DNA of 64,000 nucleotides from Obrimoposthia wandeli (GCA_977020255.1 CDROCS010001033.1:62001-126000), one strand, 5' to 3'; shown: positions 7,224 to 57,800, counted from the stretch's first letter. The notes: generated by a model from the letters alone, not told the origin. Program-made: numbers and translations.

Positions 7224-7240
7224 ATTTTATTCTACTTTAT

Positions 7241-9390: not shown

Positions 9391-9405
9391 GTGCTTCACT
9401 TGGTC

Positions 9406-17297: not shown

Positions 17298-17937
17298 ATA
17301 GTAATCAGACAAGTGTGGAAGCTAAAATCGTAAAGAATAACTATAAGCTAGAAACACATGTCGCTGATGACGTTCTGTATGTTGAAGAAAAACCTTTGCA
17401 AGATTCGAATAGTTCATACGCCAGTAACATGGACCTCAATGATATCAGTTTTGTGCCAGTAGACAGAGTCAACGAATTGTGCCAGTCTCACAATTTGTCA
17501 ATGAGTGATGAAGCTCACGACTACTTGAAGAGAGCCAGCACACAATTTCTGCATCACATATTGAGTCAGGCATTTATTGCTGCAAAAGCCAGAGATCTAG
17601 TCAATGAAGTCCTGCGTTCGGATAGACACAAGCTACGGATGATCCCGAATCCGGTAACATGCTAGTTACAAATTCACATACCGTTGACGGTATCACGAAC
17701 AGAACGTTGCAATCTTTAAGGGAATCAGGGACTACGCAAACATTGTTGCAAGAATTCATAAATATCAAACCAAAAATACCAGCGAAGATTATTGATCCGC
17801 CAAAGGAACAGAAACAAGTGAACCATAAAGTTCGTATCACCACCAAACAACTGATATTGGTAATACAAATGCACAAGGCCGCGGACCAGCTTACATGTCT
17901 GAGAACATTCAAGGACCTGCAGAACAAGATTGGATGA
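17298..17937 (+). pseudogene. TAF4-like histone-fold gene copy, 5'-truncated, with a 1-bp frameshift near 17660
   Basis: Near-identical to 33608-34248; aacatgct here versus aacattgcc in the intact copy. Confidence 0.8.
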
Positions 17938-36900: not shown

Positions 36901-39900
36901 AGAAATTTATGTACAGCGACCGAAACTTTATAAGAAACCAGAAGAATTATTTTATCGAGAAGAATTAATTTACGAGAAAATTGCCAGTCAGCGAAAAATC
37001 CCGAGAAAACTATTAGTTGCAATTAGCAACATTTCCTTACGCATCGTCATCGAAAAAAATAAATTATCGCCATCAACAAGTTTCCACGGTAACTTACTAT
37101 AAATAAGAATTGAAATTGATTCTCCATTTGCAGAAAAATATTCAAACAGAAATTGACAACACATTGACGGACATTGAACAACGTACGGATCTGGGACGAG
37201 GGATTTACCGGTAAGAACACATAAATTGTATTTTGCAAAATTAGCCTAGAAATTAAATAGTAATCAAATATTACAGGAGAAAATTCAGAGTTGCAACGTT
37301 GGATAGAGTTACAAGTGGGTAACCCAAATAATCGATTTCGGAAATAATTGGAGCAAAGAAACCAAAACTGAGCAACGTTAACACTGGGATCAAACACAGG
37401 AGAATTAAATATTGAATTGGTGAGAACACACGCATTACATACCATTTTTAAATTAACATAGTAAAGTTGAATTAAAGTATATTGAATTTGAGTTTGAAAT
37501 ATAGTGAAATTATTTGAATCAAAGTGTATTGAATTTAAACGTATAGTGAATTTACTGAAGTTAAACGTATAAATTAGTGAATTGAGAAACGTAAATTATT
37601 CATATTAAAACTTAAAATATTGAAATAAAATAAGCAAAGGATCGTCCCATTTTTCAGCGTGTTAGAAGTGATTCTATTGTATTAGACGTCCAACTCAAAA
37701 TTGTTAAACCATTTTAGTTGTGTTAACGTAATATAGTATTTCCTACAAATTGTCTAGACAATTTTAGTCACCAACCGTGTCGGCGTGAATACCCAAACAT
37801 ATAGGTTGGCCAAGAGACAACCACGGGATGGTACTCTAAGCACTGGGGTATTTGAGGATTGTTGTGTCCCAATATTACCGGAGTAGTATCGTTATCGTCG
37901 CTTGGCTCCGGCTCTTTTTCATATATTCAGTCTAAGTGACTAACTTGATTTACCCGAACTTTAACTTCTAAGTTCACATAACACCACATTATTTTTGGAA
38001 ACTCTACCAGTTGTTTGTGAACACAACTCGTTGAACACATCACAATACAAAAGTACAAAAACCTTCAGATTTGAGGTTAAAATTAAGTAAGACAAATATA
38101 GGTAGGCCACATCCATCTGTAAGTCATATCGCTACAGAACTCACGTTGGGGGCCTCCATACGAGGATCTAAGAGTTTCAATTAGAAACCCCAACAAATAT
38201 ATAAGTATGTATTATTCTATCCAGGTTAGAATATTACATTTTTATTCTTATATTTGACTAAATGTTATCTGAATTACCTTAACTTGTCCTCATACCCCGG
38301 GGGCTTTGTTCCAGAAGAGCCACATTTACCTACTAGTATTAACTCAAGTAGATGATTTGGTTATGAAAGAATTATATATTATGGGTCAAAGCCTATGAAT
38401 TCTAATGAAATAGGTTACTGTATTACAAGAAAAGAAATGCCAGTCATTGTGCATTTTACAGATTATTTCAAACACCATCTTTATGGAAAAAGATTTCGTC
38501 TTCGAACTGATCACAAAGCTTTAACTTCCATGCTTAAAACTAAAAAGCCAAACACCTCAATTCCAAAGTGGTGCAATCACCTGATAAGATGAAAACCACT
38601 CAAACACTGATGCACTTTTCAGAAGTAAATGTAGAACTCGTTTTCAATGCAAAACTAATCATGAAAATTCAAAAACTAGGAATCTGAAAACAAAAATTGA
38701 ATCACTTTATATATAGTTCAAAGTTGTGAAAATTGTCAGGAACGAAAAGCAGTAACAGAACAAAAGAATCAAATAAGGAATATTCGGATTATTCTTTTTA
38801 GTGTAGTTATAGATTTTTGTGGGTCATTGAAAACAACATATAATGGTAAAAATACATTAAAATAATAATTCAATTTAGTAAGTACATAGTTCTGAAAGCT
38901 ATAACTGATCAAAGCGAAAATGCAACAGCAACACAAAGTGATAAACTTAGTTTGTAATAAAATGAATTTACTGATTTGAGTACAAAATTAGACTAATATA
39001 AAAAAACATTGCCAATGTTGTACCAAAACTGTGAGTAGAATATGAAGTTAATTGAGTAAGGTCGTTTCTGTGGACAGTATAGGGGTCGTTCCAATGTAGA
39101 CCTAGCTAGACTACTAGACTGGATAGTAGAAGCTGTATCAGGTTTACCTTGTAAGTCTAACAAATAATGAGTTTTGATAAACCGTGTCCACACAACCCGT
39201 CAATCAATTTGGAGTTAAACTAGTAAATGATTTTTGAGTTTGTTAGTTGAGTTAGTATTCCAATATATTTCATTTTTTAAGCTATTTGTTTGAAAAACAA
39301 TATTTTGAATCGAATTCTTCATTAAAAATTACTATAAATTTTACATAAAGTTAAAACGAGTAAGTTTTAAATTTTATTAATTAATTATAGGTTATTGATT
39401 TTTAAAATAAAGGATGCCAAGAAAACATGATTATTTACATTTGCAAATAATAACATTGCATCAACATACAACAACAAAAAACAAATACCGAAATATCTGA
39501 TGATTTGGAATGTAATAAATCAACAGTTTCACGAGTTATTCAAAAATATGCAGAAACAGGTTCTAATAGATCAACATTTTCAAATTATGAACGCTATAGA
39601 ATATTAAATGAAATAGATTCTCATCATATGACATTGTTATGTGTGAGAAACCCAAGATCTAAAGACATTGAAATTCAACATCAAATGCAAGCTGAAGGAG
39701 AGGTAAGTCTTCTAACTTTTCAACGTGCTCTCAATTACGCGGAATGTAGAACTCGTTGGGCCTCGTAAAAGACAGTTTTAACTGATAATCATAAAGTAGA
39801 GGCTAAAATAAGCTTTAAAAAAATAGATAGTGAAGTATTTTGGATTGGAAAAGGTGCTATTAAACAAAGGTTGAGAAATGAGATAATGTTCCAATACCTG

Positions 39901-42900
39901 TCCGCTTAGTTGATATTCATGAATCAACAGATTAGCATTACAATAGGGTTGTTTTAAATCCCACAAGTGTCGTGATATCGTCATGTTTGTCATTTGGTTG
40001 TTTAGGACCAATAAGGGTAATTGAAGTACAAATGAATAGCCGATTCTGCTATTTTATCACAATTCGAAAAATTAAGGCTGAACAATAATGGTATATTATA
40101 TATATTAAAGAAAACTTCGGGCCATTATCAAGAAACAACTAAAACAACGTAAAATGAAAAGACAAGATATAATTAGAAATTTAACCAATATCTGATCGGA
40201 CAATACAGAAATAGTTCCCATGTATAAAAAAATTATAGAAAGTCTACCTAATCATATTGAATGTGTGATCGCCTCGAAGGGAGGTCATTGCAGATATTTG
40301 CTTTTTTAAAAATATTGTAGATTTTATGTCTGTATATTTATCTACATTATAATAAATCATAAATATTTTAAAAAATGTTCAATTTTGTGTTTTTCTGATA
40401 AATTTTAATAAAAATATTGTGTTGCAAACTTTTTGTCGCGTACTGTATATATATATATTGCAATAATTGATGGAATGACAATCACTAATGAGTGAATCTC
40501 AAGTTATGACTGGTTGCACAAAGGTTATAAAATGTCAAAAATTGTGAAAACTATTTCAAAATGTATCAATAACATTTATGATGAAAAACGTATTGAACTG
40601 TAAATTGTAAAGGATACTGTATTTTTACGTTATGTGTAACATCACATGTGCTTAGCTAAGACTCATTTACAGTTGAATGCCATGAAACACTATGAAACAC
40701 TCACGTCATTCTCCAGATACAGGAAGGTGCCGGATCGCAGAATCCGCTGGATCACCTCTCCATCACCGTTATTGTAGGCCTGCAACAACTGCCTCAGCGG
40801 ATCTGAATCGTCGTTGTCCAGCATGGATCTGGTGTGATCAGAATAGTGGAATTATCAAGCCAGAAACAGTGCTTCATAAACAAACTGATCTCCATCCGAC
40901 TCTGCATCCCCTTGTTAAAAGGGTCAGATTACGAAATCATATTAATGAGTTTCATTTTTTAAAGTATTAAAATTATACGGGCCTAAGCTTTTTTATGTAC
41001 TCGTTGAATAAACAGTTCATACTTTTCCGAATATGGCTGATTGTACCATATCTGGTACGAGTCAAGACTTCATTTTATATATTACAATTTCACAATTTTA
41101 CCATCTTTGCTTATTTCAGGACGGTTTCTTTTTGAAATAAAATGAAATTTCATTTAAATATACTTTAGACGACATTTTGACATTAAAACACCTTATAATT
41201 TAGTGATAAAATTAATACGATACTCTAAACATGTGTGAAAAAAGGTTAGGTCGGATTAAAGAGGGAATTTTACTGACAAAAAATACCTAGTCAGTCAAAA
41301 ATAGATTTGGAGTCGGAATACGAGAATCAGTGTAAAAAATCACTAACGTTAGCACTTAATTTATCTTTAATCAGTTCTCCAAAAAAAGGTCACATAAACG
41401 AGGGGGTCGGCCTAACAGGAGTAGACTGTAGCATAGACGAAAACTGGCTGGTTGACAATACAAAATCAATAGAATGTACAAGTATACAAAAGTGATCTTT
41501 TTCTTAACCAAATATAAGGACATATTATTTAATGTATAATGCGAGTAAATTTTTAATGTGATAAATAAATAAAATCATTTTTGTAATCGAAAAATAAAAC
41601 TGTTTTGAATTTGATTTTGTAAAATTGACTTTTGCAAAAATATGCACTCAAAATTTTAAAATGTCTAATTTCTTGTAAATGATTTTAAAAAATAGATGCA
41701 AAAAAGTGATTAAGTACGCACGTTTCCCTGCGAACACTGTAAAATAGTATTAATTGATTGACGTGTTTTTTTACTCAGTTTTGTTAACTGAAAATGCAAT
41801 TATTTGTAAAGATATGCGACGTGCAGTAAACTTGATCATCTAAATGACCCGTGAAATCTTTTGGGTTGGCCAAGCCAGCTCTAACAGAAGCACTGGGGTT
41901 CTTTAACGATCTAACTGCCGACATGTTGTTGTAATACAGTAGGTTTCTACTAAAAACCGTTAGACGGCATTCGTGACGAATTTTTATTTCCGCCCACTTT
42001 TTTAGATATTGCTATTGAAAATGCATTTACATAATATTCTAACGGATGTAGCTTATAATGAGTGAGTATTTCTCAAATCGTGAGTGGGATTCTATTATAA
42101 TTCCACTTCTGGACCCGGTTTATAATAAGAGGCTTACAAATTGTATAATCATATAACAAATTGATTTAAATCCAAAAAAATTAAAATTTACATTAAAAAT
42201 GTTACTGTTAAAAAATTGTTAGAGATATTCTATAACTGAAAATATAGAATTTATATTTTGAGCTCCGATAAGTCATAATGACGAGGTTTACGCCCTATAC
42301 GAAATAAGTTTTTTGTGCTTGTTACCGTGAGTTTATAGTAAAACGCAGTTAGCTGATAACTCCCCATTACATCAATGGTGATCACTGACCCGCTCATCTC
42401 CTCATAGAGTTTGGTGGCTGCTACGATGTCGTTGTCACGATGCAGGATGACGATGATGGCAGCGATCAGCGCCTTGCTGGCCTCGTGATTGACACCAGCA
42501 GCAGATGCCAGACGCATCTTATCACGCAGAGCAGCCACCACCTCTGCAGAGCTGGCAGAGCTCTCCCTCGCCAGCATCTTGGCTGCCAAGCCGGCGTACT
42601 CGCTCGCCTCACGCACGTTGTCCGTATCCTGTGCCGCCTCCGCGGAGAACCGGTACAGCCGACCAGCGGCTCCAGGGTGGGTCTGCTCAAGCTTCCTGCA
42701 TGAGAGACAAGACAAATGAATAACTTTAGTACTTCCTTTTCACGTTATTGACCACATTTGATTATTTAGAAAGAAAGAATCTTGAGCTGTAAATGAGCTG
42801 ACACCAAAATTATAATGAAGTGTTCGGTTAATCGGGATCTTACTGTATGGACATGATACAATACATTATTATATTTACAGATAACAACTTAATATTTTCT

Positions 42901-44981
42901 AATTTAATTCAAGCCTTAAGATGTGAACGAGTGTTAAGTATAAAAAATATATATAAATAAATATAAATCTATATATATTTAACTATATTTTATAAATAAA
43001 ATAAAATAAATAAATAAACTTTCTCACTATTTTGAACGAGTCCCATAAAAACAGTTTCGAAGCTTTGTATTTACAGAGTTTAAGGCGATGCTTACAATGA
43101 ACTAAATGACTGGTCCTGGCCAAAAAGCCTATCTAATTAGTATATACCTGGAGTATAGCAAACCCTGCAATAACTAATGTATTTTTATAGCAAACCGTTC
43201 TAATGGTACTTGGAATAAAATTGCTTTGTATATAGTGGTCATGCACTCAAAACGTTGATGTTGAAATGTTAAACACGAGTCAATTAAATTATGGTTAACA
43301 AGTCGAGGCCAAAAACTACTTTTAATTATTCTACAACAATCTTAAACTGATTTCAAGAAATTATTGACAAAGGTGTCCAAATTATTGATGAAATGTTCAA
43401 GTATAAAATAATTTTATTCCTAAAAAAGTGTTTAGTTTTAATGACATCTTGACATTTATATAATTTTTAGAAATCGAAGTTCCATGCTCTATAACATTGA
43501 GTGAGAGATATGAAGTCTTACATCACCTGTGCTTATCTGTGGACTGAGAAAATGCTTTTATGTACTAAATTTTTGCCGCTTGCGATGTGTATCCTATTTT
43601 CATATTTGCCTCACTTTTTATAAATAACTATTTCACAATTACAGTACTCTCGCCACACCCGTAGGAAAATGCTTGTAATAAAATATTAATTTTGCATTTC
43701 AATATGTTGTCTAACCTTTGATTTCATACACAAATAGTCTTGATGTACTTTATGACCACCATTGCAACTGGCGAGAAAAGGTTCTCAGTGGTGAAACAAA
43801 TAAATAATGTCCTCAGATCAACGAAATGCCGAAAGGGACTAGCTGTTATATCAAATGAAAACAATATGCTCCGCAATTTGCAATTCACAGATGTTTTGCA
43901 GATATTTGTTACCAATAAATTGTGTAAAGTAAATATGTGAATTATACTTTACTTACCATATAATAATGTTTATGCTTTTATTTATGTTGTATTGCACTGA
44001 CAAACTAATCAATAGAAATTCACAATATGTCCAAGAATAGATTGTATTAAACAATTATTGTTAAGAGTTATTTGAATTTTCGGCTATAGAAGAACAGTAA
44101 ACAGTCGGTAAACTGAAGAAATCTCTATATACTTATAATTTAATAACATGTTTAATTCAACATTTTATACAAAATAAGTAGCTGTATTGTAATAGCTTTA
44201 AAAAACGTTTAGTCAAAATACCGATTTAGGAATATTGATATCATATTCTCATAACTTGATTACCAAGCAATTAAGTGGTATTTCTAATATTTACTTTAGT
44301 TATAGACACTAAATTATGATCTTGGTCCCTTAGTCCTTGATATAGCGGCATTATACAGATATATTATTTTAGTAAGTAAATTAAGCACATTTTAACATAT
44401 TTCATAATTACTAACAGTATACAATTTTTAGAACAATAAACCGTGAACGTGCCTGCTCAAGCAGAATGTTATTGAATTTTAATTAATTACTTTCCGATGC
44501 GCTGCATCATTTGACAGGCCGCAGAGGCGGTGCCATTCACACGCAGCTGCGAGCCAGCTTCCAAAATCAGCTGCATTCCCCGTTCAATGTTTCCTTGATT
44601 CAGACAGATATCTGCTGCTGACTCTTGTGCCTTGGCAGCGTAGAATATCGAATGGTTTTTCTCGTGTAATTCTGAGACCTGCCAACATCGCGTTACAGTC
44701 AGTCAAGTATTTATAACACTAAATAAATCGATACATACTAAATAATTTCAACATACTTTCATTAAAATATTAATAGCATTTTCTAAATCCCCGCCAGCTT
44801 TAAAAGAATCAACAGCTGAACTGTAATAACTAATTGCACTATCGTAATCAGGCGACCATTTCATAAAAGACGTTTTTAAACTAAATATAATAATTTTCAA
44901 TTTGATTATTAAACACAAAAACCTTTTTTCAGCCTTTTTAACAAAATTATTTGCTTCTTCTATTTTGTTTCCACTTGACAT
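21957..44981 (-). CDS. NAPG: Gamma-soluble NSF attachment protein; exons 44981-44923, 44880-44757, 44678-44491, 42695-42390, 40828-40705, 22073-21957
   Basis: The spliced frame is continuous with GT-AG junctions: MSSGNKIEE..KAEKSLKTSFMKWSPDYDSA..FYAAKAQESA..NGTASAA..ILHRDNDIVAA..LRQLLQAYN..FLYLEND|YAKLARDL, colinear with human gamma-SNAP. Confidence 0.92.
23440..24300 (+). pseudogene. Mariner/Tc1-type transposase remnant, interrupted
   Basis: GISHTTVHKILRNDLNIKPYKI*FYQALYDEDFADRH (HTH linker) and FLIPCL..VFQNDGA (second catalytic Asp). Confidence 0.6.
24598..25370 (+). repeat. Diverged direct repeat pair (about 24598-24850, 25115-25370)
   Basis: Shared core gaacttatgatataccgacattctacataaaaa..ttttgtgaaactaaat. 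Confidence 0.7.
26250..28954 (+). mobile_element. hAT DNA transposon, 2705 bp, antisense inside the NAPG last intron
   Basis: Perfect 8-bp TSD GTTATAAT (26242-26249, 28955-28962). Imperfect TIRs TAGTGAGTAAACA / TAGGGGTCAAACA; ACCGGTAA subterminal repeats. Confidence 0.93.
26600..28479 (+). pseudogene. hAT transposase (BED finger, DDE core, dimerisation domain) with a stop at 27041-27043 and a frameshift near 27795
   Basis: VWQYF..CLQC..STSGLKAH, FSLTIDEYTS, VTTDGAS, CLAHACHL, TRWNST, ATSVESERAFS. Confidence 0.92.
29125..29722 (+). repeat. About 48-bp exact direct repeat (29125-29172, 29674-29722)
   Basis: aaaaatatgtacaagtgagttaatacttaatgttggataattctattatt occurs twice. Confidence 0.85.
30790..30988 (+). 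mobile_element. Internally deleted mini-copy of the solo-LTR family
   Basis: Starts TGTTAGGGTTAGGATTTA like 52695 and ends gagtttaaattattagaaagcccccaga like the family 3' end. No TSD. Confidence 0.55.
33556..34248 (+). CDS. Intronless TAF4-like histone-fold protein (230 aa), nested antisense in the NAPG intron
   Basis: DISFV..RVNELCRSHNL..DEAHDYLKRASTQFLHHIL..AAKAR resembles the TAF4 alpha1-alpha2 helices. After a long linker, KVRITAKQLILVIQ resembles the TAF4 C-terminal RVNLRDLIFCLE helix. Confidence 0.6.
   Translation: MECVPIKKIKLSSYQSVDSNQTSVEAKIVKNNYKLETHVADDVLYVEEKPLQDSNSSYASNMDLNDISFVPVDRVNELCRSHNLSMSDEAHDYLKRASTQFLHHILSQAFIAAKARDLANEVLRSDRHKLRMIPNPGTLPVTNSQTVEGITNRTLQSLRESGTTQTLLQEFKNIKSKIPAKIIDPPKEQKQVNHKVRITAKQLILVIQMHKAADQLTCLRTFKDLQNKIG
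35645..35795 (+). repeat. About 75-bp tandem duplication
   Basis: aataaaactcttaatatcttagttttacaatgttaac...caactacaacgtag occurs twice. Confidence 0.9.
36170..36662 (+). mobile_element. 3' part of an LTR of the same family (5' end not located)
   Basis: Carries the conserved 3' core and ends GAAACCACA; 36170-36260 matches 63917-64000. Confidence 0.7.
36711..38195 (+). mobile_element. Solo LTR, 1485 bp
   Basis: TGTTA...GAAACCCCAACA with a 4-bp TSD AATA on both sides; conserved 3' core. Confidence 0.8.
38395..39050 (+). pseudogene. Ty3/Gypsy pol remnant (RNase H and integrase pieces)
   Basis: ITRKEMPVIVHFTDYFKHHLYGKRFRLRTDHKAL, TDALF, CENCQERK, IDFCGSL; many lesions. Confidence 0.8.
39414..40445 (+). 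mobile_element. Tc1-like transposon remnant
   Basis: EISDDLECNKSTVSRVIQKYAETGS (HTH) and ESLPNHIECVIASKGGHCRY (C-terminus). Right TIR ...aactttttgtcgcgtactg followed by TA. Confidence 0.8.
42932..43033 (+). repeat. 102-bp AT-rich direct repeat, one mismatch (second copy 45158-45259)
   Basis: Directly visible; one copy is in NAPG intron 3, the other just upstream of the NAPG ATG. Confidence 0.9.
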
Positions 44982-46418
44982 ATCAAAAAAAGTATTATGC
45001 TATTTAAAATTAAAAGTCTGTAGTTTCTCATAAATAAACGTATTTAGAAAAATGTTTACCAAGAATAAAAAATAAATTAGAAGAAATAAATAAAAAAACA
45101 AATTAACTAATAGATTTCATACAAGATATTATAGATATTAAAGAAATTATAATATATTGTTAAGTATAAAAAATATATATAAATAAATATAAATCTATAT
45201 ATATTTAACTATATTTTATAAATAAAATAAAATAAATAAATAAAGTTTCTCACTATTTTAAACAAATATGCATTCATTTGAAAATTTATATCTAATGTAC
45301 AAAAATTAAATTAAAACAGTTATATACTTTTTGTTCATTTTCATTTGTATTTTACTTTTTTAAACATTATATATATTTACAATATTATTTTTTATTAATC
45401 ATATTTTAAAATTATTATTTGTATCTGTTTGACAATGTGAAAAAATCTTATGTACTATATAATGTATAATCTTACTCAAAATACTATTAAAATGGGGCAC
45501 TAAAAATTTTAACGCTTAAGTTGTTTTAATGAAATAATCTTCACATTATATAAATACTGAAACCTTTTAACTTCCTTAACATTAAATCTTTATAAAACCA
45601 ATTTTCGAGTAAAGAATTTAGCAAATTTATTAGCAAATTAGTCAAATGGATTACAAAATATAAGACAGAACTGATACATGGCCATGTAATTTCTTCATTT
45701 TTTGCCACTTCTAATAATTTGTCCCGTTTTTGTTAAAGATTCCTGTCAAGATTAGACAATGAAAATAAAAGAAAATAATTGTCATATAAGATCTACAATT
45801 AGTGATTCAATTCCTAAAAACAAAGAAAAAAATATAATTATATGGTTCTTTAATTTTTTAACATGCAGTTTTTATGTATAATAAAAGATATAACCCAATC
45901 GTATCAGAGTAGCAAAAATGATTCCACAGAAAGTCTCAACAAAATCGTACATCTAACAAGTGTAATAGTTATTAGGGTTTTTAAACTAATAGTTATTTTA
46001 TATGCGGCGACGCTAAGTTGTGCTAGATGTCAAAGAGTGAATTTGACGTAAATGTGAGTAAAAAAACTATAATGATGAATGGGGCAATTTGTCTTAGAAG
46101 TAAGTGTTCCAGTACACCTAAACTGCTTTTGGGAACGCGACGGAAAAGATAATAAATATTTATAAATTTGATGCCCTATGCCTTATTAACATAAAAATAA
46201 AACTGCAGCTTTTGAGTTAATAATTGTTTTATAAATATGTATTTTGACTGAACTCGAAACTGAACAATTTTGGTGATTCAGTCACTGTACCAGATCAAAT
46301 TACTCAACTGAGCAGGTTTTGAAAATTGAAACAACCTGTCAGAACAGAATTAGTTGAGATCGGCTGCTACTGCACTCCACTGAGGCTGATTACTCCCAAC
46401 TGAAACAACAACAAAACA

Positions 46419-47215
46419 TTGCCGATACTAGATCACTTTCAAAACAAAGATCAAACAAATGATCATAAGGCTGAAACCATCGCGAAGGTTTTAGTCGAAA
46501 AAATTATTTTTACTTTCGGTGCACCCCGAAAATTATTAACCGACAAAGGTCCTGAATTTATAAATAATGTATTAGCGTCAATAGCTGAAATTTTTCACAT
46601 AAAAAAGATCAATACAACACCATATCACCCTCAAACCGACGGATTAGTAGAAAGATTTAATAGAACCCTCGAAGATATGATGGGATCATACACAAACAAC
46701 AACCAAACAGATTGGGATTTACATATACCTCCATGCCTTTTTGCCTTTTTGCATATAGAACATCAGTACATGCATCTACAGGAGAAACATCTTTTTACCT
46801 TATGTGCCTCAGAGATCTTCAAATGCCTATTGACCTAACATTACTACAACCTACTACACAGTACCTAGAAATACCTGAATACAAAATAGAAATAAGAGAA
46901 AGAATAAAACTAGCATTCGAAAAAGCTAAATTATTTTTAAAAAACATACAAGAAAATTTCAAAGAATATTATGATAGAAGAACTAAGCCATCAAATATAA
47001 AAATTGGAAGTAAAGTAATGATTCACAATCCACAAATCTATGTAGAATTATCACACAAATTATCAAAACCATACAAAGGACCATATACAGTCATTAGTAC
47101 CAATGGAACTAACATAACAGCTAAACTCGACAATGAACCAAAATCAAAAGAAATAAGAACACATATGTCGAGAAATACCAGAGGAAAATACAAAAGTAAA
47201 AAGTCACAAATATAA
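46419..47215 (+). pseudogene. Ty3/Gypsy integrase core and C-terminus (5'-truncated, frameshifted by an 8-bp duplication)
   Basis: LLTDKGPEF, TTPYHPQTDGLVERFNRTL, YRTSVHASTGETSF, KLSKPYKGPY; gccttttt duplicated at 46735-46750. Confidence 0.92.
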
Positions 47216-47321
47216 CTTAAGATCAACTAACAATAATACTGTTCTACAAATGTTAACTATAAAAAACTCACAAAAACAAAACAAGACTAAATTGAGTCAT
47301 CAAACTAAAAATACAATAAAA

Positions 47322-48584
47322 ATGTCAATAAAAGAAATATGTAAAATAATGATGTTATTAATAATATATTTTACAGTAAAAAGTAACATAATAAAAGTAA
47401 ATGCTATAAACCTGAATGAAAATCAATTAATAGTAAAAGACGAAATAAATAGATACGACTCACAAACACATCTCATAAAAAATTTTGGACTTATTACAAT
47501 AATACCTGAAATCACATCAATAAAGTTGAAAATATCACTCTTTACAAAAAAATTAGGAAGAATTCAAATAATACAATCTGAAAAAAATCAAATAATAAAT
47601 ATTTACAAAATCGAATCAAAAAATTATATAATACCATTTTTAAGAACAGAAACACAATACAAAATAAGAGTTAAGTCGAATTTAAAGAATATAACACTTT
47701 ATGAAAGAATTATAGAAACTCACTTATACTTAACTTCAATATTAAAAACGACAGCAAAATATATAACAAAACATCAAATCATGATAAATTGGGAATTTCA
47801 ACTTAAAATAGATAATTTTGATAAAACCCTCATTAGAATTAGATATAGAGGATATAATGATCATTTTTGGAAAGACGCAGAAAAACAATTAGAAAAAACA
47901 CAAATCAGAACAAATATCACTATAAAAAATATAAGATATCCAGAAAAAATAATAATGGATAATAGAGAATATGTAATTACTAACAAACGAATAATGTATA
48001 GACTATGGGGACAACAATTTGAGACTTGTAAAAATCTAACAAACTTAAGGATTTTTGGAAATAAAATATCCAAATTATACCAACCTACGATTTTTTGTGG
48101 CCAATGGTCAGTAATTACAATTAAGAAATATATCAAAGAAACAACCATAAAACAAATACCACATACTACAACATTCACAACAAAGACTTATGAAATTACA
48201 AATCAAAGTAATATCACAGAAAATAAAACAATTAACAAACAATTAAAAACAACAAAAACAATACCCTATAAATCATTGAATGAAAGTCTAAAAATACACT
48301 TTAGTAAACAAAAATACTCAAAAAATATAAATAACATGGAAATTTTTATAACAATCATAATAATTGAAATCTTTACATTAATCATAAAAATAACATGGAA
48401 GGTTATTAAAGTAAAACATAACACAATTTTCAAAAAACTTTATCGGACTAAATATTGTGAACCACCTGGCCCATTTATGACATCCATCATACCTAGCTCT
48501 TCAAATTCATCTAACATATCAATAAATACAATAATTGAGAACAATAAACAGAAAATAGAAAAAATCTTTATAAAATTGTCATAA
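47322..48584 (+). CDS. Env-position type I membrane protein: signal peptide, two FN3-like domains, Thr-rich stalk, TM helix, cytoplasmic tail
   Basis: Signal MSIKEICKIMMLLIIYFTV; FN3 hallmarks YIIPFLRTETQYKIRVKS and YITKHQIMINWE..IRIRYR..W; TM MEIFITIIIIEIFTLIIKITW. Starts about 100 bp after the integrase stop on the same strand. Confidence 0.65.
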   Translation: MSIKEICKIMMLLIIYFTVKSNIIKVNAINLNENQLIVKDEINRYDSQTHLIKNFGLITIIPEITSIKLKISLFTKKLGRIQIIQSEKNQIINIYKIESKNYIIPFLRTETQYKIRVKSNLKNITLYERIIETHLYLTSILKTTAKYITKHQIMINWEFQLKIDNFDKTLIRIRYRGYNDHFWKDAEKQLEKTQIRTNITIKNIRYPEKIIMDNREYVITNKRIMYRLWGQQFETCKNLTNLRIFGNKISKLYQPTIFCGQWSVITIKKYIKETTIKQIPHTTTFTTKTYEITNQSNITENKTINKQLKTTKTIPYKSLNESLKIHFSKQKYSKNINNMEIFITIIIIEIFTLIIKITWKVIKVKHNTIFKKLYRTKYCEPPGPFMTSIIPSSSNSSNISINTIIENNKQKIEKIFIKLS

Positions 48585-48727
48585 GAAATACATGAATTGA
48601 AATACTAAAATAAAAACTAATCATAAAATAAAGTAATTATAATGTAGATAAAGGAAAGTGCGTATGTGTTTAGTTTAAATAGAAGATAGTAAAAAATAAA
48701 CTTAAAAACTTATTAACATTTTAGAAA

Positions 48728-49036
48728 ATGAGAAATTCAAAATTAGTACAAAATAATAGAATAAGATATAAGAGACAGAAGAAATGGGAAAATAAATTGT
48801 TGATAGAGAATATAAATCTGAGATCGCATTTAAAAGACAAGGAAATGGAATGTGAGCGAATGAATAATGCTTTTGACGTTGCAATTGAAAGACTAGAACA
48901 TAGCCAAACAAATCAGGAATTATTAGTACGACGACTCAGAGAAGCATTAAACTCTCTTGTATCGTTGAGATCAGTAATTAATCGTTTGATGGGATTTCAA
49001 CCGGGAGAAAGTGATGATTCCGGGTGTGAAAATTAG
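48728..49036 (+). CDS. 102-aa coiled-coil ORF, unknown function
   Basis: Intact ORF with a heptad-like charged/hydrophobic pattern and an acidic end. Confidence 0.5.
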   Translation: MRNSKLVQNNRIRYKRQKKWENKLLIENINLRSHLKDKEMECERMNNAFDVAIERLEHSQTNQELLVRRLREALNSLVSLRSVINRLMGFQPGESDDSGCEN

Positions 49037-49462
49037 TAAAATCCCCAGTGAGTAAATTAAAAAATAAAAGAAAATTGAGAATGAGTTTGGGCTTATGGCA
49101 TGTTTTTGGAGAGGAAATGTGTTTATGAATGGGTATTAATATTCATTAACTTTAGTTGAAATAGTAATAATAAAATTAAGAATAGGTAAAAAATGAATAT
49201 ATTAGTATAGATATGTATATATTGATATTGATAACACCAGTAATAAGAATATATATTAAAGAATGAAAAATTATATCTTGTTTATATACCTTGTTTGTTT
49301 GAACTTGTTACATGAAAAACTAAAATGATTTACAGACTTTTGATTAACAAAAAAGAGACAAATAAACTGACAAGAACATTTCATTTGATAGACATTTGAC
49401 AATTTTTTATATTTGCATGTAAAATCAACAATTTTTTTTTACTATATCTGTATATCCTACAG

Positions 49463-50590
49463 ATGAAATCAACAGACTCAAACCCACACCTGAACTGGAA
49501 AGTTGCTCCGCGGGGGAGGGGAGAGAAAACTATAAAGTTCGTCAAGCAAAGACCTGAAATGGCTTGCATGGCAAAATTCCTTTACGGAAAAATAAGGCAA
49601 TTCGAAACTAGAACGTTTAATGGAAAAAACGGTTCCAAAACGTTTGCAAATCAAACCCAATTACCCAATAAAATAAAATTGAGAGATACTCCCCGACGAA
49701 GCCTATTACTGAATAGCGTACAGGATAGGCCAACTGAACAAGGATTGTTAGAAATAATGGAGTTCCTACCAACATGCACAGATATTGAAATCCACGTGGC
49801 AAAAGGCCGTGGATTTCTACAACACAAAAGGCAAAAGGATTTTTCTATTTTATTATTACAAAATCATTCCTACCGATTGAAGAAACACCAGATAACACCC
49901 GACCTAAAAATCCGCTTATCTGGTGGAAACAATGTACTTTTCTTCGAGCAGAACATCAAACCAGAACCCGTTAAGATGTGTTACATCCAATTATCACCCA
50001 GTATTCCCCAAATGTTTTTTGTTTATTGTGAGATGGTAATAACAATGGAAAAACAGCCAACATTGGCAAGCGTCTCTATAATGAACAGGGAAGGAAAAGT
50101 CATCCTTAATACTTTATGTACCAGTAGAGAAAGAATTAGAAATTATGTAGGACGAATAACGGGATTAAGTGAGTACACATTAAAAAACCAATCGGACTCT
50201 AGGGATGTAATTACACATGTACAACAAATCCTTAGAGGAAATATACTGGTAGGAACGGGAATTACGAATGATTTAAAAGTACTAAGCATGAAAAAGTCAG
50301 ATTTCGTCACTTTAATAGATCTAGGAGCCACCAAGACCATTCAACAAGATTTCAATCAACAAACCAAAGTTGGATTGAAAAGAATGATTCTATATTATTT
50401 CAAACAGAACATACAGAAAAAGACCCATTCTAGTTTAGAAGATACGAAATGGACTAGAGAAATATACATCCGTAAAGCAAGCGAAATAAATGCTGAACTT
50501 GGGTCGATTTTCCCCTCACCTCGCGAAAGCATAGCTAATCTGCCTGAGGTCATAGACCTTTGTTCCTCTGATTCTGAGGACAGCCTTTAG
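49463..50590 (+). CDS. RRM-like + DEDDh (REX4/ISG20-like) 3'-5' exonuclease with C-terminal SIM-like motif
   Basis: VYCEMV..LASVSIMN..ITGL..ILVG..NDLKVL..LK..IQKKTHSSLED; upstream RSLLLNSV..KGRGFLQH; C-terminal EVIDLCSSDSED. Intronless, 375 aa. Confidence 0.85.
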   Translation: MKSTDSNPHLNWKVAPRGRGEKTIKFVKQRPEMACMAKFLYGKIRQFETRTFNGKNGSKTFANQTQLPNKIKLRDTPRRSLLLNSVQDRPTEQGLLEIMEFLPTCTDIEIHVAKGRGFLQHKRQKDFSILLLQNHSYRLKKHQITPDLKIRLSGGNNVLFFEQNIKPEPVKMCYIQLSPSIPQMFFVYCEMVITMEKQPTLASVSIMNREGKVILNTLCTSRERIRNYVGRITGLSEYTLKNQSDSRDVITHVQQILRGNILVGTGITNDLKVLSMKKSDFVTLIDLGATKTIQQDFNQQTKVGLKRMILYYFKQNIQKKTHSSLEDTKWTREIYIRKASEINAELGSIFPSPRESIANLPEVIDLCSSDSEDSL

Positions 50591-50890
50591 AGTAGTAAGA
50601 TATTTTACTATGCATCATTCATTAAATGTCTTATTGCTTGTGGATGTGAAAAGTATAAAATCAATGTTTTATTTTTTATCTTTGCATTAACAGACTAGAG
50701 TGATGTTGTTTTTAAAAAATCATTTTAGACAGACATACTTTAAGGGATATTCATTCTTCAATTTGTTGCAAACGTCAGAGGTCTGACTTGGTTTTTCCCC
50801 ATAGGATTGTTGGGTTATTAATTAATAAAATAATTAATAATTTAGTCAATTAAAATTGACATTTAAAATTGATCTAAAATGCCCACAATT

Positions 50891-51251
50891 AGGGAGGAAT
50901 GCCATTTCAGCCTCCGACGGGGTGGTCCCGTTTCGCCCTGCCGGGCTCGTCAGAGAGGCGGCAGAAAAATATTGATTGCGGAGACCTTTCCGCCCAGTTA
51001 TCTCTCTCTACTGTCCCGAGGGTCGCCTTTTGAAAATTCCCGGTTGCACGCGTGTGGGCATGTATAGCCGGGAATTACCAGATGCCACCAGAATTACCAG
51101 ATGCCAACCGCTAGCAGTGCAGTCGTCTCCCTCAGACCGACTTCTGCAACGGATTCCGATCTGTTTTGACGTCGTCATGTCATTAAATCTCATTGTGTCT
51201 CCCAAGAAGCCGAATTAGATGTCCCTATCCAGCTTTCTCTGTGCCACATCA
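50891..51251 (+). other. Candidate polypurine tract (agggaggaa) plus 3' LTR (TG...CA)
   Basis: Purine run directly before TG at 50900, then a GC-rich block with ATTAAA near 51182 and a CA end at 51251. No 5' partner in the window to confirm it. Confidence 0.35.
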
Positions 51252-52694
51252 GGGACGGAATTGTGTTTTTGCTTTTGTGCACTTTGTTGCCGCACAGGAT
51301 TATCACATGTTCCAGTTACGACCGGTCTTCTCCATCATCATCAAAGTGTTAACAATAAATTGCACTTTCATCCTCTAGTAACAACTTCCACAGTGGCCTG
51401 TCTCCCTGTTCTTCCTTCATCCCACATCACCATCACCTTGATACAGCCCACAAACACAATCTCTCTCCCACTGTGATGGCATTGGCAATTGTAAAAGTCA
51501 ACTCGATTACAGTTTTCTCTTCTGCCCATTCTACGCTAAAAATCACTAACACAGGAAACACAAATTGGTCTGATAAAGTGACTGTTATCCATCTCCATCC
51601 TGCAACTGCTGCCCTCTGTGCATCTGTGCCACATCAGTGACGGAATTGTGTTTTTGTTTTTGTGCACTTTGTGTAAGTATGTGTGCACGTTTTGCACCGA
51701 TTCTCGGTCTCCAATTTAATAACTTATCAACAATTTATGCCCTCCAATTTAGAATAATCAAATTCTTCTCTACCGCGAATTTGGTAAGAATTTGAAGCGA
51801 CTGATACTATTGGAAAAAATACAATTTAATAACTTATTAACAATTTATGCCTTCCAATTTGGAATAATCAAATACTTATCTACCATGTTTTTCATTACAG
51901 ATGCACTTCACTCTCAATACTTATCTCTATTGTTTGTGTGTTCGAGATCACAACTGTCTTCCGAGTCGAGTTAAACAGATGGGGAGGGACAAAAACATAG
52001 GTCCAAATTGAAGCTTAACCTGGGCTAAGTTCGTAAATTATTAGAACCAAATGCTATTAAAATACCTAACAATCATTTTATTTTTACAAATTTTATTTTA
52101 GTTGAATCTGTGCGTTTTCATCAAGCTGAATAGTGCATTTCTCTCGTTTTCCAGAATACTTGTCGATGTTTAATAGTAATCGTCAACTTTTTAATGTTTT
52201 GATTTTTTTTATAGATGTCATTATTTTCCTAAATAATATGTTTATTTGCGTTTTAATTCTAATTTGTGCATCTGCCACTTAACAATTTTAGCAACAATAC
52301 ACAGTGCTGATTTAAGAATATCTGAAAATTTCATAGAAAGTTTTCGAATATGATCATTTCTACAAAACATTTTTAACCAGCGAAGAATTTATTTTAACCA
52401 TATGGTGAAGTTCCAAATGAACAATTAAAATTGAATGGTTAAAATTAAACGTAAAGACAAAAAATAATAATATTTTAAATGCTAAATTAATGAAAAAGTA
52501 AAAAAGGTTAATAAATATTAAAATTATTTAACATAAAGTGACCTTACATGTTGACTACATTATTTAGTTACCAGGTAGAGAGAAAACATAGAGAATACTT
52601 ATAGACTTATGTACTTATAGACTCACTGGGAGAATCGTTAACTATTAAAAATCACTACTATAGAGAAAAATATACAGTGAAAAAATTATGATAG

Positions 52695-54320
52695 TGTTAG
52701 GATTAGGATTTATAAAATTGATTAATTATATATATAGGAAAAATAGAACCCTGTAAACAAGGTTAAATAAAATAAAAAAATAATAATTTTAAAAATTTTA
52801 AATTGAATTTAATAAGATTAAAATAAGTTTAAGGATCTTAAAGGTCATGTGTATTGCGTTATGTGTATAGGTAAGTTAAAAATCTAAAGGGGCCAGTTAC
52901 GAAAAGTTAAATTAATTGTATAAAAACCCAGTTACAAAAAGAAAATCAACTACAGGAAAATTAATTAACTTCAATTAAGAAGAAATTACAAAACATCAGC
53001 CTCGATGAGAACCGACTGCTGCCAGCCAGACTTGGTTGAAAGGCGAAGAGTCGGAATGCAGAGCAAGCGCGCTGGAATGATGCCAGCCGTCTAGCGGTAA
53101 GTGCACTTAAGTTAAGTGCAGTTCATTTATTATTTTCCATTGAGGAGCGAGACGAAGGCGCTGGGAGCTGGGTCGGCCGATTTCCAGTTCGAATCCGGTC
53201 GTGCTGTGAGCGGGACAGGAGCACTTAAATTGGGTAAGTGGATTCGTTGAGTTGAGTGCCTTCGGGATTGTGGCCTGAATAGTTTCAGAGGGGCAAAGGG
53301 GGAAATCATCCAATTGCTGAGGCCACTTGTGGAGGCCGAACCATTGGTAGATTGAGAAATCTTAAAAAATAAATCCTATTGGAGGTAAAATTTCTTATAA
53401 TAGACGGAAACTAGAGTTGAGATTTAGTAGAAATTATTGATCGTAATTCAATCAGATAAGCAGAGACATATATAATCGTTAAAGCCCTTTCTGGACAAAC
53501 AAAGGCGGATCTTGGTGAGAATTTTGTCTAGATAACTTAGAGAAAGTTTAAATTGTGAATTTATCTAAAAGTTGGAATAATTATGAATTTATCTTAAAGT
53601 TGGAATAATTGTGAATTATCTTACAGTTGGAATAATTGTGAATTATCTTAAAGTTTAAATAATTTTGGATTTATCTCAAAAGTTGAGATAATTTGTGTAA
53701 TTAAGAAATTATCTTAAAGTTTGTATAACAGTTGGTATAATTCCGAAAGTGACTTGTTATATTTAAAATTGGTACGGGGAAGAACTTTAAACTGGTAAAT
53801 TAGGTGAAGTTGGTTAAAAATAAGTAAAAGTTTTAGAACCTATATATTGAAGAAACCAAAGTTGGAACTAAAGAACAATTTAAATTAACTAGGCAAATTT
53901 GATTAAAAGACGTAAAATCAATAGAGGGTCATCTCTATTTATAAAGTGTTTGAGACTGATTGTTGTTAGACAACCTACTTGTCAACTTGTTAAATCATTT
54001 TTAGTTAGTAAAGTAATATAGAATTTTCCTACAGATCGAGTAGAGTTATTTCGGTTAACATAGGAATAGAAAAACACAAATCCCTCCCCACACCACACTA
54101 CACTACAACAAGGGAATCCTTTTAGTATCTTGTGCACACAACTCTGTACACATCTCGCACTACATTGATACAAAAACCTTCAGACTTGCGACTAAGTTAA
54201 GTAGGAAAAAACCTAAATAGGCCACATACATCTGTAAGCCCTATTGCTACAGAATTCACGTTGGGAGCCTCCATAAGAGGATCTATCTGAATCAAAGCAT
54301 TTCAAATAGAAACCCCAAAA
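52695..54320 (+). mobile_element. Solo LTR, 1626 bp, about 535 bp upstream of the YTHDC2-like ATG
   Basis: TGTTAGG...GAAACCCCAAAA with a 4-bp TSD ATAG on both sides; internal tandem repeats at 53560-53700; conserved 3' core. Confidence 0.85.
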
Positions 54321-54854
54321 ATAGTGACAAAGTAACGATGAGAATAATGAATCAAGAAACGACAAGAAGATTATATGGAACAGTAAGGAATTTGATGGAA
54401 ATTTGAAGAGCAATACAGTAAAATAAGAGTAGGAAAGGACAACATGTCGCAAAAATAAAAAAGTATAAATAATAAAACCCAATCTGTCACTGTTTACAGA
54501 TAATTTACACTTTTGTAATATCGATGCTCCACAAAGTATATATGATCCGTCACGGTCCCACCTTAAAACACAAACGATCAATAATTATAAGAAGCAGTCG
54601 TTTAGTTTGTACACTAGGAATTTTCTAACCCAAGCTCAAGTAGTTGTTCAGTCAACGATATTAAATAAAATTAAACATTTATTCCTTCAACAGGATGAGA
54701 ATATTTTAGCTGTGCCACACCGAAAGTATTATTTTTAAAAAAAGTAAATAAGGCAGGAATTTGGACAATTGTCATAAAACTTTTAAGCAGACCCCCATGG
54801 TAAGTTTAAAAAAACTAATAAGTATTGATTAGAATTATTTATTTATTTTATGAA

Positions 54855-57800
54855 ATGATTGGCGACAAAGAAGACATTCGAGGACTGTTATCATATTTCT
54901 TTGGTAGATTTAGAATTGATATTTAACTTTGATTTATTTAAAGCTTATGAACAGTCAACTCCGTTTATTGAAAAGTTTAACAAGGAAGACCCAGCAAATA
55001 TTGAATACGATGAAATAAAATTGGCCATAGTTCTGTCGTTGGAGAACTTTCTTCGAAGACCGCATTTAAATGAATTGAAATTCCCAGCATCGTTTTCTAA
55101 TGTTGAGAAAAAACTTGTTCAAATAGCTGCCAAGAAAATGGGTCTTAAGTATCAATTAACAAAGTTAAGTTTCTTTGTAATTTTGGTAGATTAATTATTT
55201 AACATTTGGTGATATTCAAAAGAATAAATTTTATTCAAACTTCGACAATATAAATATATTAAGCATTGCTTGTTATATCCTTTGTGGCCTAAAATTGTTT
55301 GTAGATATTTTAATTTAATATCTTTTTATAAAAATAATTTTGCTTTTAATTGTAGAATATAAATTTAACCTTTTTTTAGAAATAATAAAACATCATAGCA
55401 AAACCTAATTGTTAAATGTTGAAAGCTTTGTATATAATTTCACAAGGACAAAAAAATTCTATTTTTTCATATGCTTTATATAAGCTTGGGGTGCTATACT
55501 GAGACTCCTAGAATGTATTGAAACGAGTTGTTCCGATACCGCCCAATATGGCTCGTTATAAGTGGATTTGTTATTAACAGCAGATCTTTAAGAAACTATA
55601 CAAATCTAAAGTTGATTTACATTTCTTTCAATCTTAATTATATTTTCTGAAAACTATTCTTTTACATTGTAGACACTTACATTGATCTTTCTATAATTGT
55701 AGCCATATTTGATCCTAATTTTATACACACTTCAATCTTAATGTGGACATTCAAATTTCCCAGAAGACTCAATAGTCAGTCAACTTCATCTTCGAGTGGA
55801 CCCTCAACACAAATGGTGACAACTCCAACATTTGCTATTGTTGTTTACAAGCCTAATCTCTCCACCATTGTTTCACGAGCTTTAAAACTTCAGTTAACGT
55901 GGAACAGCAGACGAGCTATAGTTCAACTTCTCGGCTCCAATCCAGTTACAATGAAAGAAAGACAAGAATTCCAACAATTGCAATGCAAGCCTGATAAAGG
56001 TGCTTTAAATTTTGTGTATTCTAAGCATTTAAAAAAGGATCAATTAAAAAAAATCAGAAAATAATATATTATTTTTACATTAACCTATTTAATAAGATTT
56101 TCAAAATTTCCCTAATACCATTATTGAAAAATCGATTAAATTTTTAAAATTTTTATTAGTATTTTCAAAAAAGAATCTATGACATGAAAGAATAAATTGT
56201 AAAATTCCAAAATGCATAAGAAACAAACAAAAATAGTAAAAAATATGAACTTTTAAATGGATGATACAGTCTATTCTGGCTAATAAATGGCAGATTCACA
56301 CATGAAATAAAGTATGTAAAATATCTTCAACAATGTATAGTAAAATTTAAAAAATATTGAACAAATAAAAGTTAAAAGGTTATAAACAGTTGAATGATAA
56401 ATTCACAAGCATTACTGAGTTGGTTACACAATCTTCAGTTGGTAATCATTCACTGACTCTGCAGAGGGCAGAGATGACCGTCACCGCACCACTACTGGAA
56501 AGTTGATGGGCGCAGTGCCACAAGTACCCCAGAGTCTCTCACAGATGGCTCCGCTACCACAGCCAATGTGCTCCACCTCAGCAGCGGCACTGCACATAGT
56601 TGGAGGCGGGGATGGACTCGTCAGTCACCAGACCAGAGCTTCTCCGGAGCCACAGCAGCACGCCGTGTGGGCTGTCAGGGCGGAGATAATTGAGTCAGTC
56701 AGGAACAATCCCATCGTGATCGTGTTCGGGGCTGCAGGCTGCGGCAAGACCACTCAGATTGCCCAGGTAAGTGCTACGTGCTCCACATTTCCATAAAAAG
56801 GACCCTCACTGATTTATGCCAATCTTTTTTTATCTCAGATGATAATGCAAGACTGTGGACGCAGCGGAAAGGCGTGTCGCATGATCTGCACCCAGCCATA
56901 CGGACTGTGTGCACATGCAAACGCGCAATACGTTACTCAGAACCGTGATGAGAATATTGGTCAGACCGTGGGCTACCAAATTCGTCTTGAAAGCAAGTTA
57001 GTTCATATTTATTTTATGACTTGTGTAGTATGGTGTAATGTTATGCAGTTTGATGCAGTATATTATAATGTGGGACAATGTAGTGCAATGTGATAGTGAA
57101 CTTGCAGAGTGTCTCCACGAACGCTACTGACATACTGCACTAATGAAGTGTTGTTGCGCACGTTGTACGGCGACCGTGGCTTCCTTGCCGGCACGACACA
57201 CATCCTGGTGGATGAGTTGCAGCAGCGGTGTCGCCACGCGGACTTGTTGGTGGCTCTGCTGCGGTCGTTAACATCGACTGGCGGTTCTGGGACACAACAG
57301 CACTTACGCGTGGTGCTGCTCGTCACTTGTCCGGCCCTGCCATACGACCTGGTACCCACTGGTCCAGGTACTGCAGGTGGGAGGCCGTCACCCCGCACCT
57401 CCTACTTCCACCGACACGGGCACCAGCACCAGCAACAACAGGGGGGCAGCAGTCCGGTCAGAGAAGGCAGCAGCAGCAAACTTGTGCGAGTTCTCAGACA
57501 CTACTTTGACTACTGTCCCACCGTTTATGGTGAGTGAGTCTCCTCTTTTGCCTATTCACTCCTGACCATTCCACATCCATCAGTGAGGAAGCCCGTCCAG
57601 GACATAGAGGAGCTCTTCTTGGAGGACGTTCTACACATGGTTAACATCGCTGTCGACTCCCAGGACTCGGATTTTTCTGGTGAGTCGCAAACACTGCTAA
57701 ACTTGTTCACTGATCTACATATTTATTCTTAACTGCAATATCATGAAATCCCTACTATAGACAGTTCATTGTCCCACACACAATTCAGATCCCTTGCAGA

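Follow-up and report, generated by a model that had tools for sequence, protein, structure and literature searches.

The subject here is a 64,000-nucleotide stretch of DNA from Obrimoposthia wandeli (GCA_977020255.1, CDROCS010001033.1:62001-126000), referred to below as the window, and in particular the remains of a Ty3/Gypsy-type long terminal repeat (LTR) retroelement found there at positions 46,419 to 51,251. The window is AT-rich animal DNA (~30% GC) and the element sits between two intron-rich host genes. Along one strand lie, in order, a truncated integrase, a reading frame for a membrane protein (open reading frame 2, i.e., ORF2), two further frames (ORF3 and ORF4), and a candidate polypurine tract (PPT) with a candidate 3' LTR following it (Table 1). 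A prior description of this DNA, made without database searches and here termed the sequence-only reading, had an integrase followed by three extra ORFs. The order and the shared strand are as it stated, but ORF2 is not separate from pol. Instead, ORF2 is, as judged from its tail motif and from the in-frame tails of related pols, the out-of-frame tail of pol, which leaves two separate extra ORFs rather than three. The reading that we favor, and which we consider reasonably probable, is that of a dead, 5'-truncated Ty3/Gypsy copy from a clade in which pol extends beyond the integrase to include a type I membrane protein of FN3-like character, ORF3 and ORF4 probably serving as accessory genes.

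Table 1. Features of the element and the flanking host genes, with positions counted from the first letter of the window
Feature	Position	Strand	Remarks
Integrase core fragment, 5'-truncated	46458..46750	+	HHCC zinc finger and first of the catalytic Asp residues missing; motifs of second Asp and of Glu kept
Integrase C-terminal part with GPY/F motif, other frame	46745..47170	+	First frame break near 46745
ORF2, type I membrane protein that continues pol in another frame	47157-48584 (475 codons)	+	Second frame break between ~47170 and 47207
Internal signal-peptide-like hydrophobic stretch	47337..47393	+	Hydropathy 1.78; role putative
FN3-like beta domains, one well supported and a second probable	47469..48125	+	Relatives-only profile; second domain by eye only
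Transmembrane anchor	48336..48392	+	Hydropathy 2.32; after Thr/Ser/Asn-rich stalk with N-glycosylation sequons, before ~60-residue tail
ORF3, 102 residues, basic N-terminus and coiled-coil-like segment	48728..49036	+	Best heptad register 67% hydrophobic
ORF4, 375 residues from ATG	49463..50590	+	RRM-like region ~49691-49927 (unproven); DEDDh exonuclease ~50012-50473
Candidate PPT	50891..50899	+	Then TG at 50900; PPT-like motif 4 times on +, 0 times on - (128 kb, both strands)
Candidate 3' LTR	50900..51251	+	Starts TG; GC 45-60%; TATA-like box 51061; ATTAAA 51182
Gamma-SNAP-like host gene	~40.7-45.0 kb (40686-44981)	-	PDB gamma-SNAP, E 0.014
DEAH helicase host gene	~54.9-57.7 kb (54859-57680)	+	MLE/DHX9-type matches, E 1e-5

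An interrupted integrase and the end of pol

The integrase is split over two overlapping plus-strand frames, 46404-46838 and 46664-47215. Its homology begins at ~46458, with the zinc finger and the first catalytic Asp missing, therefore, along with the rest of the 5' half. The core fragment matches Pfam rve (E 1.8e-5) and is 61% identical to residues 331-431 of P0001, the pol whose integrase was used in searching for relatives, and at most 67% identical to P0009; the C-terminal part is 46% identical to residues 419-565 of P0001 and 44-48% identical to the eight best relatives. This is a DDE integrase of Gypsy type, that is, one possessing a GPY/F module, truncated in its N-terminal part. By these comparisons it is a 5'-truncated Ty3/Gypsy integrase with two frame breaks, consistent with its earlier description as broken and as lacking, in this copy, the gag/reverse transcriptase half. 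The order protease, reverse transcriptase, RNase H, integrase (PR-RT-RH-IN) is absent from the window. It is seen in P0003 and P0006, with RT-RH-IN seen in P0004 and P0009.

ORF2, which is longer than any frame found among 1000 shuffles, overlaps the integrase frame, with the integrase tail motif at 47208. Its KYNLR motif is found 46 nucleotides past H-x-x-R, the last conserved integrase motif, and a KYNLR-like motif lies 14-17 residues past that same point in six of the ten nearest pols (30 residues past it in P0009), versus a chance occurrence in 26 of 20,000 shuffles. ORF2 also gives a match, a weak one, to the corresponding part of relatives using hhalign. From there onward the tail motif, signal-like stretch, FN3 motif, and anchor are present in the same order as in those relatives, with a similar hydrophobic stretch seen in P0003, P0004, and P0006 at 42-50 residues past the integrase end. 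Seven sequons are found from signal-like stretch to anchor, the ectodomain contains two cysteines, and the cytoplasmic tail resembles that of P0003 (11 of 2000 shuffles, this being one of six tails tested). No R-x-x-R/furin site or fusion peptide was seen in ORF2, nor did Pfam scans match ORF2 or its six aligned relatives to fusogen families, the 5' half of this copy being missing. The supposed contrast between open extra ORFs and a broken integrase is weak: ORF4 is indeed open, but ORF2 is cut off from pol by a frame break and ORF4 is without one of its catalytic residues.

Related pols and the FN3-like ectodomain

The search with the P0001 integrase matched 661 proteins, of which 120 were listed and compared. 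Among these listed matches, six of the ten pols nearest to the element (P0003-P0008) run in frame from integrase into a signal-like stretch, FN3-like beta-rich repeats, and a membrane anchor. The anchor is within the same ORF for five of the six, and for P0004 it is found beyond one in-frame stop, in locus L001. P0009 has an anchored tail of a different kind. For the other 110 pols the median tail is 83 residues, with four tails exceeding 250 residues and two of those four possessing an anchor. Extra aspartic proteases are found past the integrase in P0001 (two) and P0005, and in P0006 there apparently is a tandem at the start.

For the integrase tree, a quick tree without named reference elements or outgroup, 67 of the 120 proteins were used along with two rows from the window; the 53 left out are mostly lower-ranked, near-identical spider sequences. 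Both integrase pieces fall with P0001-P0010 in a 12-row group (SH-aLRT 93). In P0011, the next protein out, a viral fusion glycoprotein (PF24664, E 8.7e-75) is found in frame, upstream of protease-RT-RH-IN; comparison with PDB did not fix the class of that glycoprotein. A GTDB scan gave 78 loci (L001-L078), of which just two look clade-like: L001, with a length of 4.7 kb, and L002, with one of 1.9 kb. Neither reaches beyond the membrane protein. Neither ORF2 nor ORF3 matches anything in these 78 loci, and ORF4 has one match of chance level (E 0.024).

The FN3 identity of the ectodomain is a family-level call. A relatives-only profile of the first repeat, built from five relatives by a fixed cutting rule and aligned without ORF2, albeit with the rule set after the tails had been viewed, picks out ORF2 at the expected place, 3 of 2000 shuffles scoring as well (18 of 2000 without composition correction). 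When all seven rows are combined into a family profile and compared with PDB, the eight chains found at E<=10 are all of them FN3 proteins, i.e., fibronectin, tenascin, titin, and monobodies, the latter being FN3 scaffolds (E 0.48-1.4). Leave-one-out profile scores beat at least 99.6% of shuffles in all seven rows, and Pfam fn3 is matched by three of the seven aligned ectodomains (best E 4.8e-4), ORF2 not being one of them. ORF2 does possess the L-x4/5-Y-x-hydrophobic E-F motif of FN3, and fn3 clusters are found in the atlas at 0.90, a weak lead given that recognition is below threshold.

Taken by itself, ORF2 gives no match with Pfam, to FN3 or otherwise, and only chance matches in PDB sequence searches of its FN3 pieces; the FN3 call rests upon relatives and profiles. 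Single-sequence AlphaFold models of ORF2, as well as of ORF4, are unusable (pLDDT 31-32), with Foldseek returning nothing for them at E<=0.001. What the sequence-only reading termed an FN3 membrane protein thus stands as to its membrane anchor, and as to FN3 likeness at the level of the family, but not as a direct FN3 match in ORF2.

A number of results count against this account of ORF2. Each PDB match of the family profile is weak; ORF2 alone finds no match among 1.84 billion representatives; pairwise BLAST of ORF2 gives no match to the tail of any relative; and a profile of full tails is only suggestive for ORF2 (12 of 1000 and 54 of 1000 shuffles). The SH-aLRT of 93 for the clade is below the threshold of 95. 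P0001, P0002, and P0010, furthermore, are without FN3 or anchor in available sequence, the tails of P0002 and P0010 being short and P0001 continuing into its two proteases. Even so, as related pols keep the FN3-like tail in frame and the profile finds ORF2, the link between integrase and FN3 holds, so far as predicted proteins go, across the clade. At clade level the FN3-pol fusion is supported, in that comparison of these predicted proteins shows pol to be extended by a type I membrane protein of FN3-like character. The earlier suggestion of a Gypsy-type lineage that has a surface protein of its own past the integrase is borne out by this shared tail, and the concern that the extra ORFs might prove unlinked to integrases in other copies does not apply to ORF2.

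Two observations concern this set of relatives more generally. P0036 (weakly Ig-like, E 0.024), P0050, and P0009 are Gypsy pols with differing membrane-anchored tails past the integrase, which suggests, at the level of sequence, that surface modules have been captured here more than once. Contigs with eukaryotic Gypsy integrases are found, in addition, in many of the bacterial and archaeal assemblies of GTDB, P0004 for example being labelled as a Turicibacter protein, and these contigs are most simply read as contamination.

ORF3, ORF4, and the downstream flank

ORF3 is present with the coiled-coil register previously proposed for it, though its length is marginal (37 of 1000 shuffles). No family match above cut-off was found for it in Pfam or NCBIfam, and no relative among the 120 proteins or 78 loci. 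The open frame of ORF4, by contrast in length, spans 49400-50590 (396 codons), with no shuffle of 1000 as long, and it is intron-free in an otherwise intron-rich host. Its DEDDh domain matches Pfam RNase_T (E 1.8e-7, 32.3 bits versus a curated cut-off of 24) and its best PDB match is ISG20 (E 4e-6). Three of the four acidic residues, along with the His, are kept in the alignment with ISG20; the one lost is the first, that of the ExoI motif, where a non-acidic residue is found. The full DEDDh catalytic set, i.e., four acidic residues plus His, accordingly is not present in this copy of ORF4, which probably is inactive. The N-terminal RRM-like region is a pattern seen by eye, accompanied by atlas leads at 0.77-0.84; its sole Pfam match is ACT-like (E 0.023), and a PDB search with this piece returned chance matches only and no RRM. 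A sequence search with ORF4, among candidates of near length only, retrieved 0 of 1605. Of the exonuclease ORF as first described, then, the RNase_T domain is secure in being above cut-off, but one catalytic acid is missing and the RRM is unproven.

That ORF3 and ORF4 belong to the element is likely, and this is argued from their position, from strand bias, and from splice-like signals. In terms of strand bias, the A-rich, same-strand character noted previously is confirmed by an A-over-T skew of 0.255 over 46458-50590, reached by none of 516 overlapping windows elsewhere. The skew over 48585-50590, which is the ORF3-ORF4 part, is matched by none of 558 outside windows. At fourfold sites, the A-over-T of ORF3 and ORF4 is closer to that of the element than to that of host exons (p 0.008-0.017) or of the adintovirus-like and hAT genes of the window (p 0.03-0.04). 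As to splice-like signals, ORF3 has an acceptor-like AG at 48723-48724, before its ATG, and a donor-like GTGAG at 49048, past its stop, while ORF4 has an acceptor-like CAG directly before its ATG and a donor-like GTAAG at 50595. Both ORFs thus have an acceptor-like site at most 3 nucleotides before the ATG, versus a background of 33 of 1192 and 23 of 1102 ATGs (~2-3%), and both have GTRAG at most 15 nucleotides past the stop, versus 88 of 4483 and 61 of 4240 (~1.5-2%). The two acceptors score 14 and 15, within the range (9-17) of eight host acceptors chosen by eye. Of ten further mobile-element ORFs in the window, not one shows either signal at the level of ORF3 and ORF4.

The main alternative is that the element consists of integrase-FN3 plus LTR only, with ORF3 and ORF4 representing a separate, later insertion, or instead host or DNA-transposon cargo captured in this copy. 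We consider this unlikely, if still deserving of weight, and it is here that the evidence unfavorable to membership needs to be considered. Neither in the 120 proteins nor in the 78 loci was any copy or relative found which links ORF3 or ORF4 to integrase. ORF4 is intermediate in composition: at fourfold sites it has less A than integrase and ORF2 taken together (0.42 versus 0.60, p=0.0015), its A fraction is indistinct from that of the adintovirus-like genes or of the hAT gene (p 0.5-0.6), and no notable skew is found in the preceding spacer (299 of 590). The lower A-richness and unskewed spacer fit capture at a later date or else separate insertion. The splice signals, moreover, were noticed first and scored afterwards using an ad hoc score, with the two acceptors ranking only 7th and 15th among 258 AGs, and signals that are exon-like would suit host-type genes as well. 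DNA transposons of the KolobokD type in fact carry DEDDh nucleases as cargo (PMC9587614), and so resemble this element in being mobile and in encoding such an exonuclease. KolobokD, however, is a DNA transposon with a DDD/E transposase and its nucleases are TREX/ERI1/Exuperantia-like, whereas ORF4 is ISG20-like. Also telling against a separate insertion are that no poly(A) tail is seen past ORF4, that no convincing terminal or target-site repeats bound ORF3-ORF4, that the strand bias is continuous from integrase to the end of ORF4, and that ORF3 and ORF4 each have their own ATG and stop, unlike internal host exons.

Downstream of ORF4 a PPT-LTR is plausible. The purine tract and TG coincide with a step in GC from ~23% to 50-60%, which supports the candidate as originally proposed, but it is unpaired, a point against viewing it as an LTR: no partner LTR, nor any second copy of the element, is present within the 64-kb window, and the upstream flank (46100-46460) is unrelated to the LTR candidate or to the downstream flank. 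Its right end is not fixed, as CA ends are possible at 51248 or 51251 and a 6-nucleotide inverted match to its start also ends at 51481. The sequence 51238-51672 is bounded by a 50-nucleotide direct repeat (96%) which overlaps the end of the candidate LTR, with degenerate coding-like sequence found on the minus strand. We also weighed the sequence at 52720-52870 as the true 3' end but dismissed it, since it belongs to a dispersed repeat whose three copies diverge beyond ~170 nucleotides.

Among the surroundings, both flanking host genes have AT-rich 5' exons and GC-rich gene-body exons (fourfold GC 0.27 versus 0.60), and one intron of the gamma-SNAP-like gene apparently is only ~42 nucleotides long. 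An adintovirus/Polinton-like cluster occupies 336-13741, with ORFs for an A32-type ATPase, a BIR-RING apoptosis inhibitor, a TBP-like protein, a dual-specificity phosphatase, an adenovirus core-protein-like protein, and an rve integrase. An inverted repeat of ~700 nucleotides lies inside of this cluster (1774-2488 / 9406-10105), and its TBP-like and phosphatase cargo looks unusual. A duplication of ~1.5 kb (17298-18824 and 33608-35124, 93-99% identity) holds an ORF with a weak histone-fold match (E 0.007), and a broken hAT transposase with zf-BED and dimerisation domains is found at 26543-28479. Two families of short dispersed repeats are present, one at 52689-52881, 30802-30956, and 59376-59555, the other at 36465-36664, 38015-38199, 54117-54323, and 58103-58280. 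Rfam, tRNA, and bacterial promoter scans of the window gave nothing informative.

Surface protein, probable accessory genes, and known systems

This copy is, as predicted from its truncation, its two frame breaks, and its incomplete nuclease site, dead. In an intact relative, and going by general polyprotein biology, the internal signal-like stretch would send the C-terminal part of pol into the endoplasmic reticulum. Cleavage there, or instead by an extra aspartic protease such as some relatives possess, would free the integrase on the cytoplasmic side. The glycosylated FN3 protein would remain membrane anchored, reaching the surface of cell or particle and binding a partner cell. There is about an even chance that it is an attachment or adhesion protein, one serving particle uptake or cell-to-cell passage. 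As neither fusion peptide nor furin site is found, attachment is likelier than fusion, with the FN3 protein predicted to be unlikely itself to fuse membranes. ORF3 and ORF4 would be accessory genes, probably expressed from spliced messages, with ORF4 a putatively captured ISG20/REXO-like 3'-5' exonuclease that most likely would trim or protect the ends of element RNA or cDNA, or instead would blunt small-RNA silencing.

A fusogen may, by analogy with P0011, be encoded in the missing 5' half. The FN3 protein then would be the receptor-binding half of a two-part entry system, its partner located upstream of the protease in a gag-env-pol arrangement. That order is described for the planarian element Burro (PMC6431247) and for nematode, bryozoan, and flatworm elements (PMC13524379), and P0011, next out in the tree, has its glycoprotein in just this place. 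P0011 is without an FN3 tail, however, and none of the FN3-tailed proteins compared extends upstream of the proteases, so that the pair is never found together; we judge the arrangement to be improbable, to about the same degree as a separate insertion of ORF3 and ORF4. Slightly less probable again is that the FN3 protein plays no part in spread and is instead a captured cytokine-receptor-like or adhesion-like module, acting as host-cell decoy or signalling modulator. Atlas look-alikes, as leads only, are FNDC4/5/9 and gp130-family receptors (0.87-0.90); tails nearby are exchangeable, given the other anchored ectodomains of P0009, P0036, and P0050; and Burro carries host-regulatory cargo (PMC6431247). 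On the other hand, position and topology are constant and env-like, as suits a protein of the particle or cell surface, and the cytoplasmic tails are short and variable. It is very improbable that these ORFs are host genes, present in single copy, next to an integrase fragment with which they have no connection. Although the window holds no second copy and host genes lie on both flanks, those host genes are split by many introns and have GC-rich gene-body exons, while ORF2 has the integrase tail motif at its beginning and matches tails that are fused to related integrases, which for ORF2 largely refutes the idea.

An attachment protein at the end of pol, as favored here, is best compared first with the errantiviruses. 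A metazoan survey sorts Gypsy env proteins as F-type or gB-type fusogens, with such env genes having served as its baits (Chary & Hayashi, PMC13524379), and the words 'fibronectin', 'FN3', and 'exonuclease' are absent from its main text. The likeness is of a Gypsy-type pol with, in the env position and adjoining pol, a protein consisting of signal peptide, ectodomain, and membrane anchor. The difference is that here the ectodomain is FN3-like and cysteine-poor, is without furin site or fusion peptide, is not recognised as an F-type or gB-type fusion glycoprotein, and in relatives is in frame with the integrase. By its predicted proteins the element works like an env-carrying Gypsy element but shows, in the half that is present, no fusogen of errantivirus type, and elements with a surface protein of cell-adhesion type would escape a survey that was baited with fusogens, as PMC13524379 was. 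Burro/GYPSM1 of planaria also has a Gypsy polyprotein with in-frame membrane glycoprotein, captured host-like domains, and accessory ORFs, but its env is found between gag and pol and is viral-fusion-protein-like, and FN3 and exonuclease are not listed in the accessible part of PMC6431247.

Retention by the clade of an FN3 membrane protein that is fused to the integrase, despite tails being only ~14-39% identical, suggests another route into other cells. In the nematode Cer1/Cer7/Cer13 and Atlas elements, pol and env similarly share a single ORF, with the surface protein cut from the end of the polyprotein, and their env proteins are viral-type fusogens. The FN3-tailed clade bears on the origin of envelopes from host genes. 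The decayed copy considered here has its value as a pointer to this family.

For ORF4, host proteins of REXO5/SDN type and of ISG20/REXO4 type share the DEDDh core, and atlas look-alikes join RNase_T with RRM (0.83-0.85); ORF4 differs in matching at only ~30 bits, in having no introns in its ORF, and in the absence of one catalytic acid. Among mobile elements the closest parallel is with Juno, Vesta, and TelKA of bdelloid rotifers, LTR elements whose extra ORFs, on the 3' side, are DEDD exonucleases, coiled-coil proteins, and membrane proteins, said to be made from spliced messages (Rodriguez et al., PMC5408684). Exonucleases in rotifer elements are mentioned in the sequence-only reading as well. 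Roles at RNA or cDNA 3' ends or against small-RNA silencing are proposed there for these nucleases, as yet untested. Theirs are DEDDy (RNase D-like) and generally the single ORF3 of a family (PMC5408684), whereas here the nuclease is DEDDh (ISG20/REXO-like), has an N-terminal extension, and is one of two ORFs found after an FN3 membrane protein; Juno and Vesta, in addition, have a dUTPase between PR and RT, for which neither P0003 nor P0006 gives a match.

In titles and abstracts, a scope to which Repbase, subscription journals, and supplements are external, we found in Gypsy elements neither an FN3-type protein in the env position nor an ISG20/REXO-like ORF. If ORF4 truly belongs to the element, then its DEDDh nuclease is of a class not met for LTR elements in the literature searched. 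A bolder synthesis, which we put forward tentatively and as having somewhat less than an even chance, is of an undescribed invertebrate Gypsy clade in which an FN3 adhesion protein of host origin, released by cleavage from the pol terminus, would constitute a third kind of env-position protein, acting either alone or with an upstream fusogen in the manner of the two-protein entry of paramyxoviruses and herpesviruses. This clade, like complex retroviruses, would in addition make accessory proteins from alternatively spliced cassette exons, among them an RRM-DEDDh exonuclease that counters small-RNA silencing. Should ORF3 and ORF4 indeed be fixed, spliced accessory genes, then the element would represent an invertebrate parallel to complex retroviruses.

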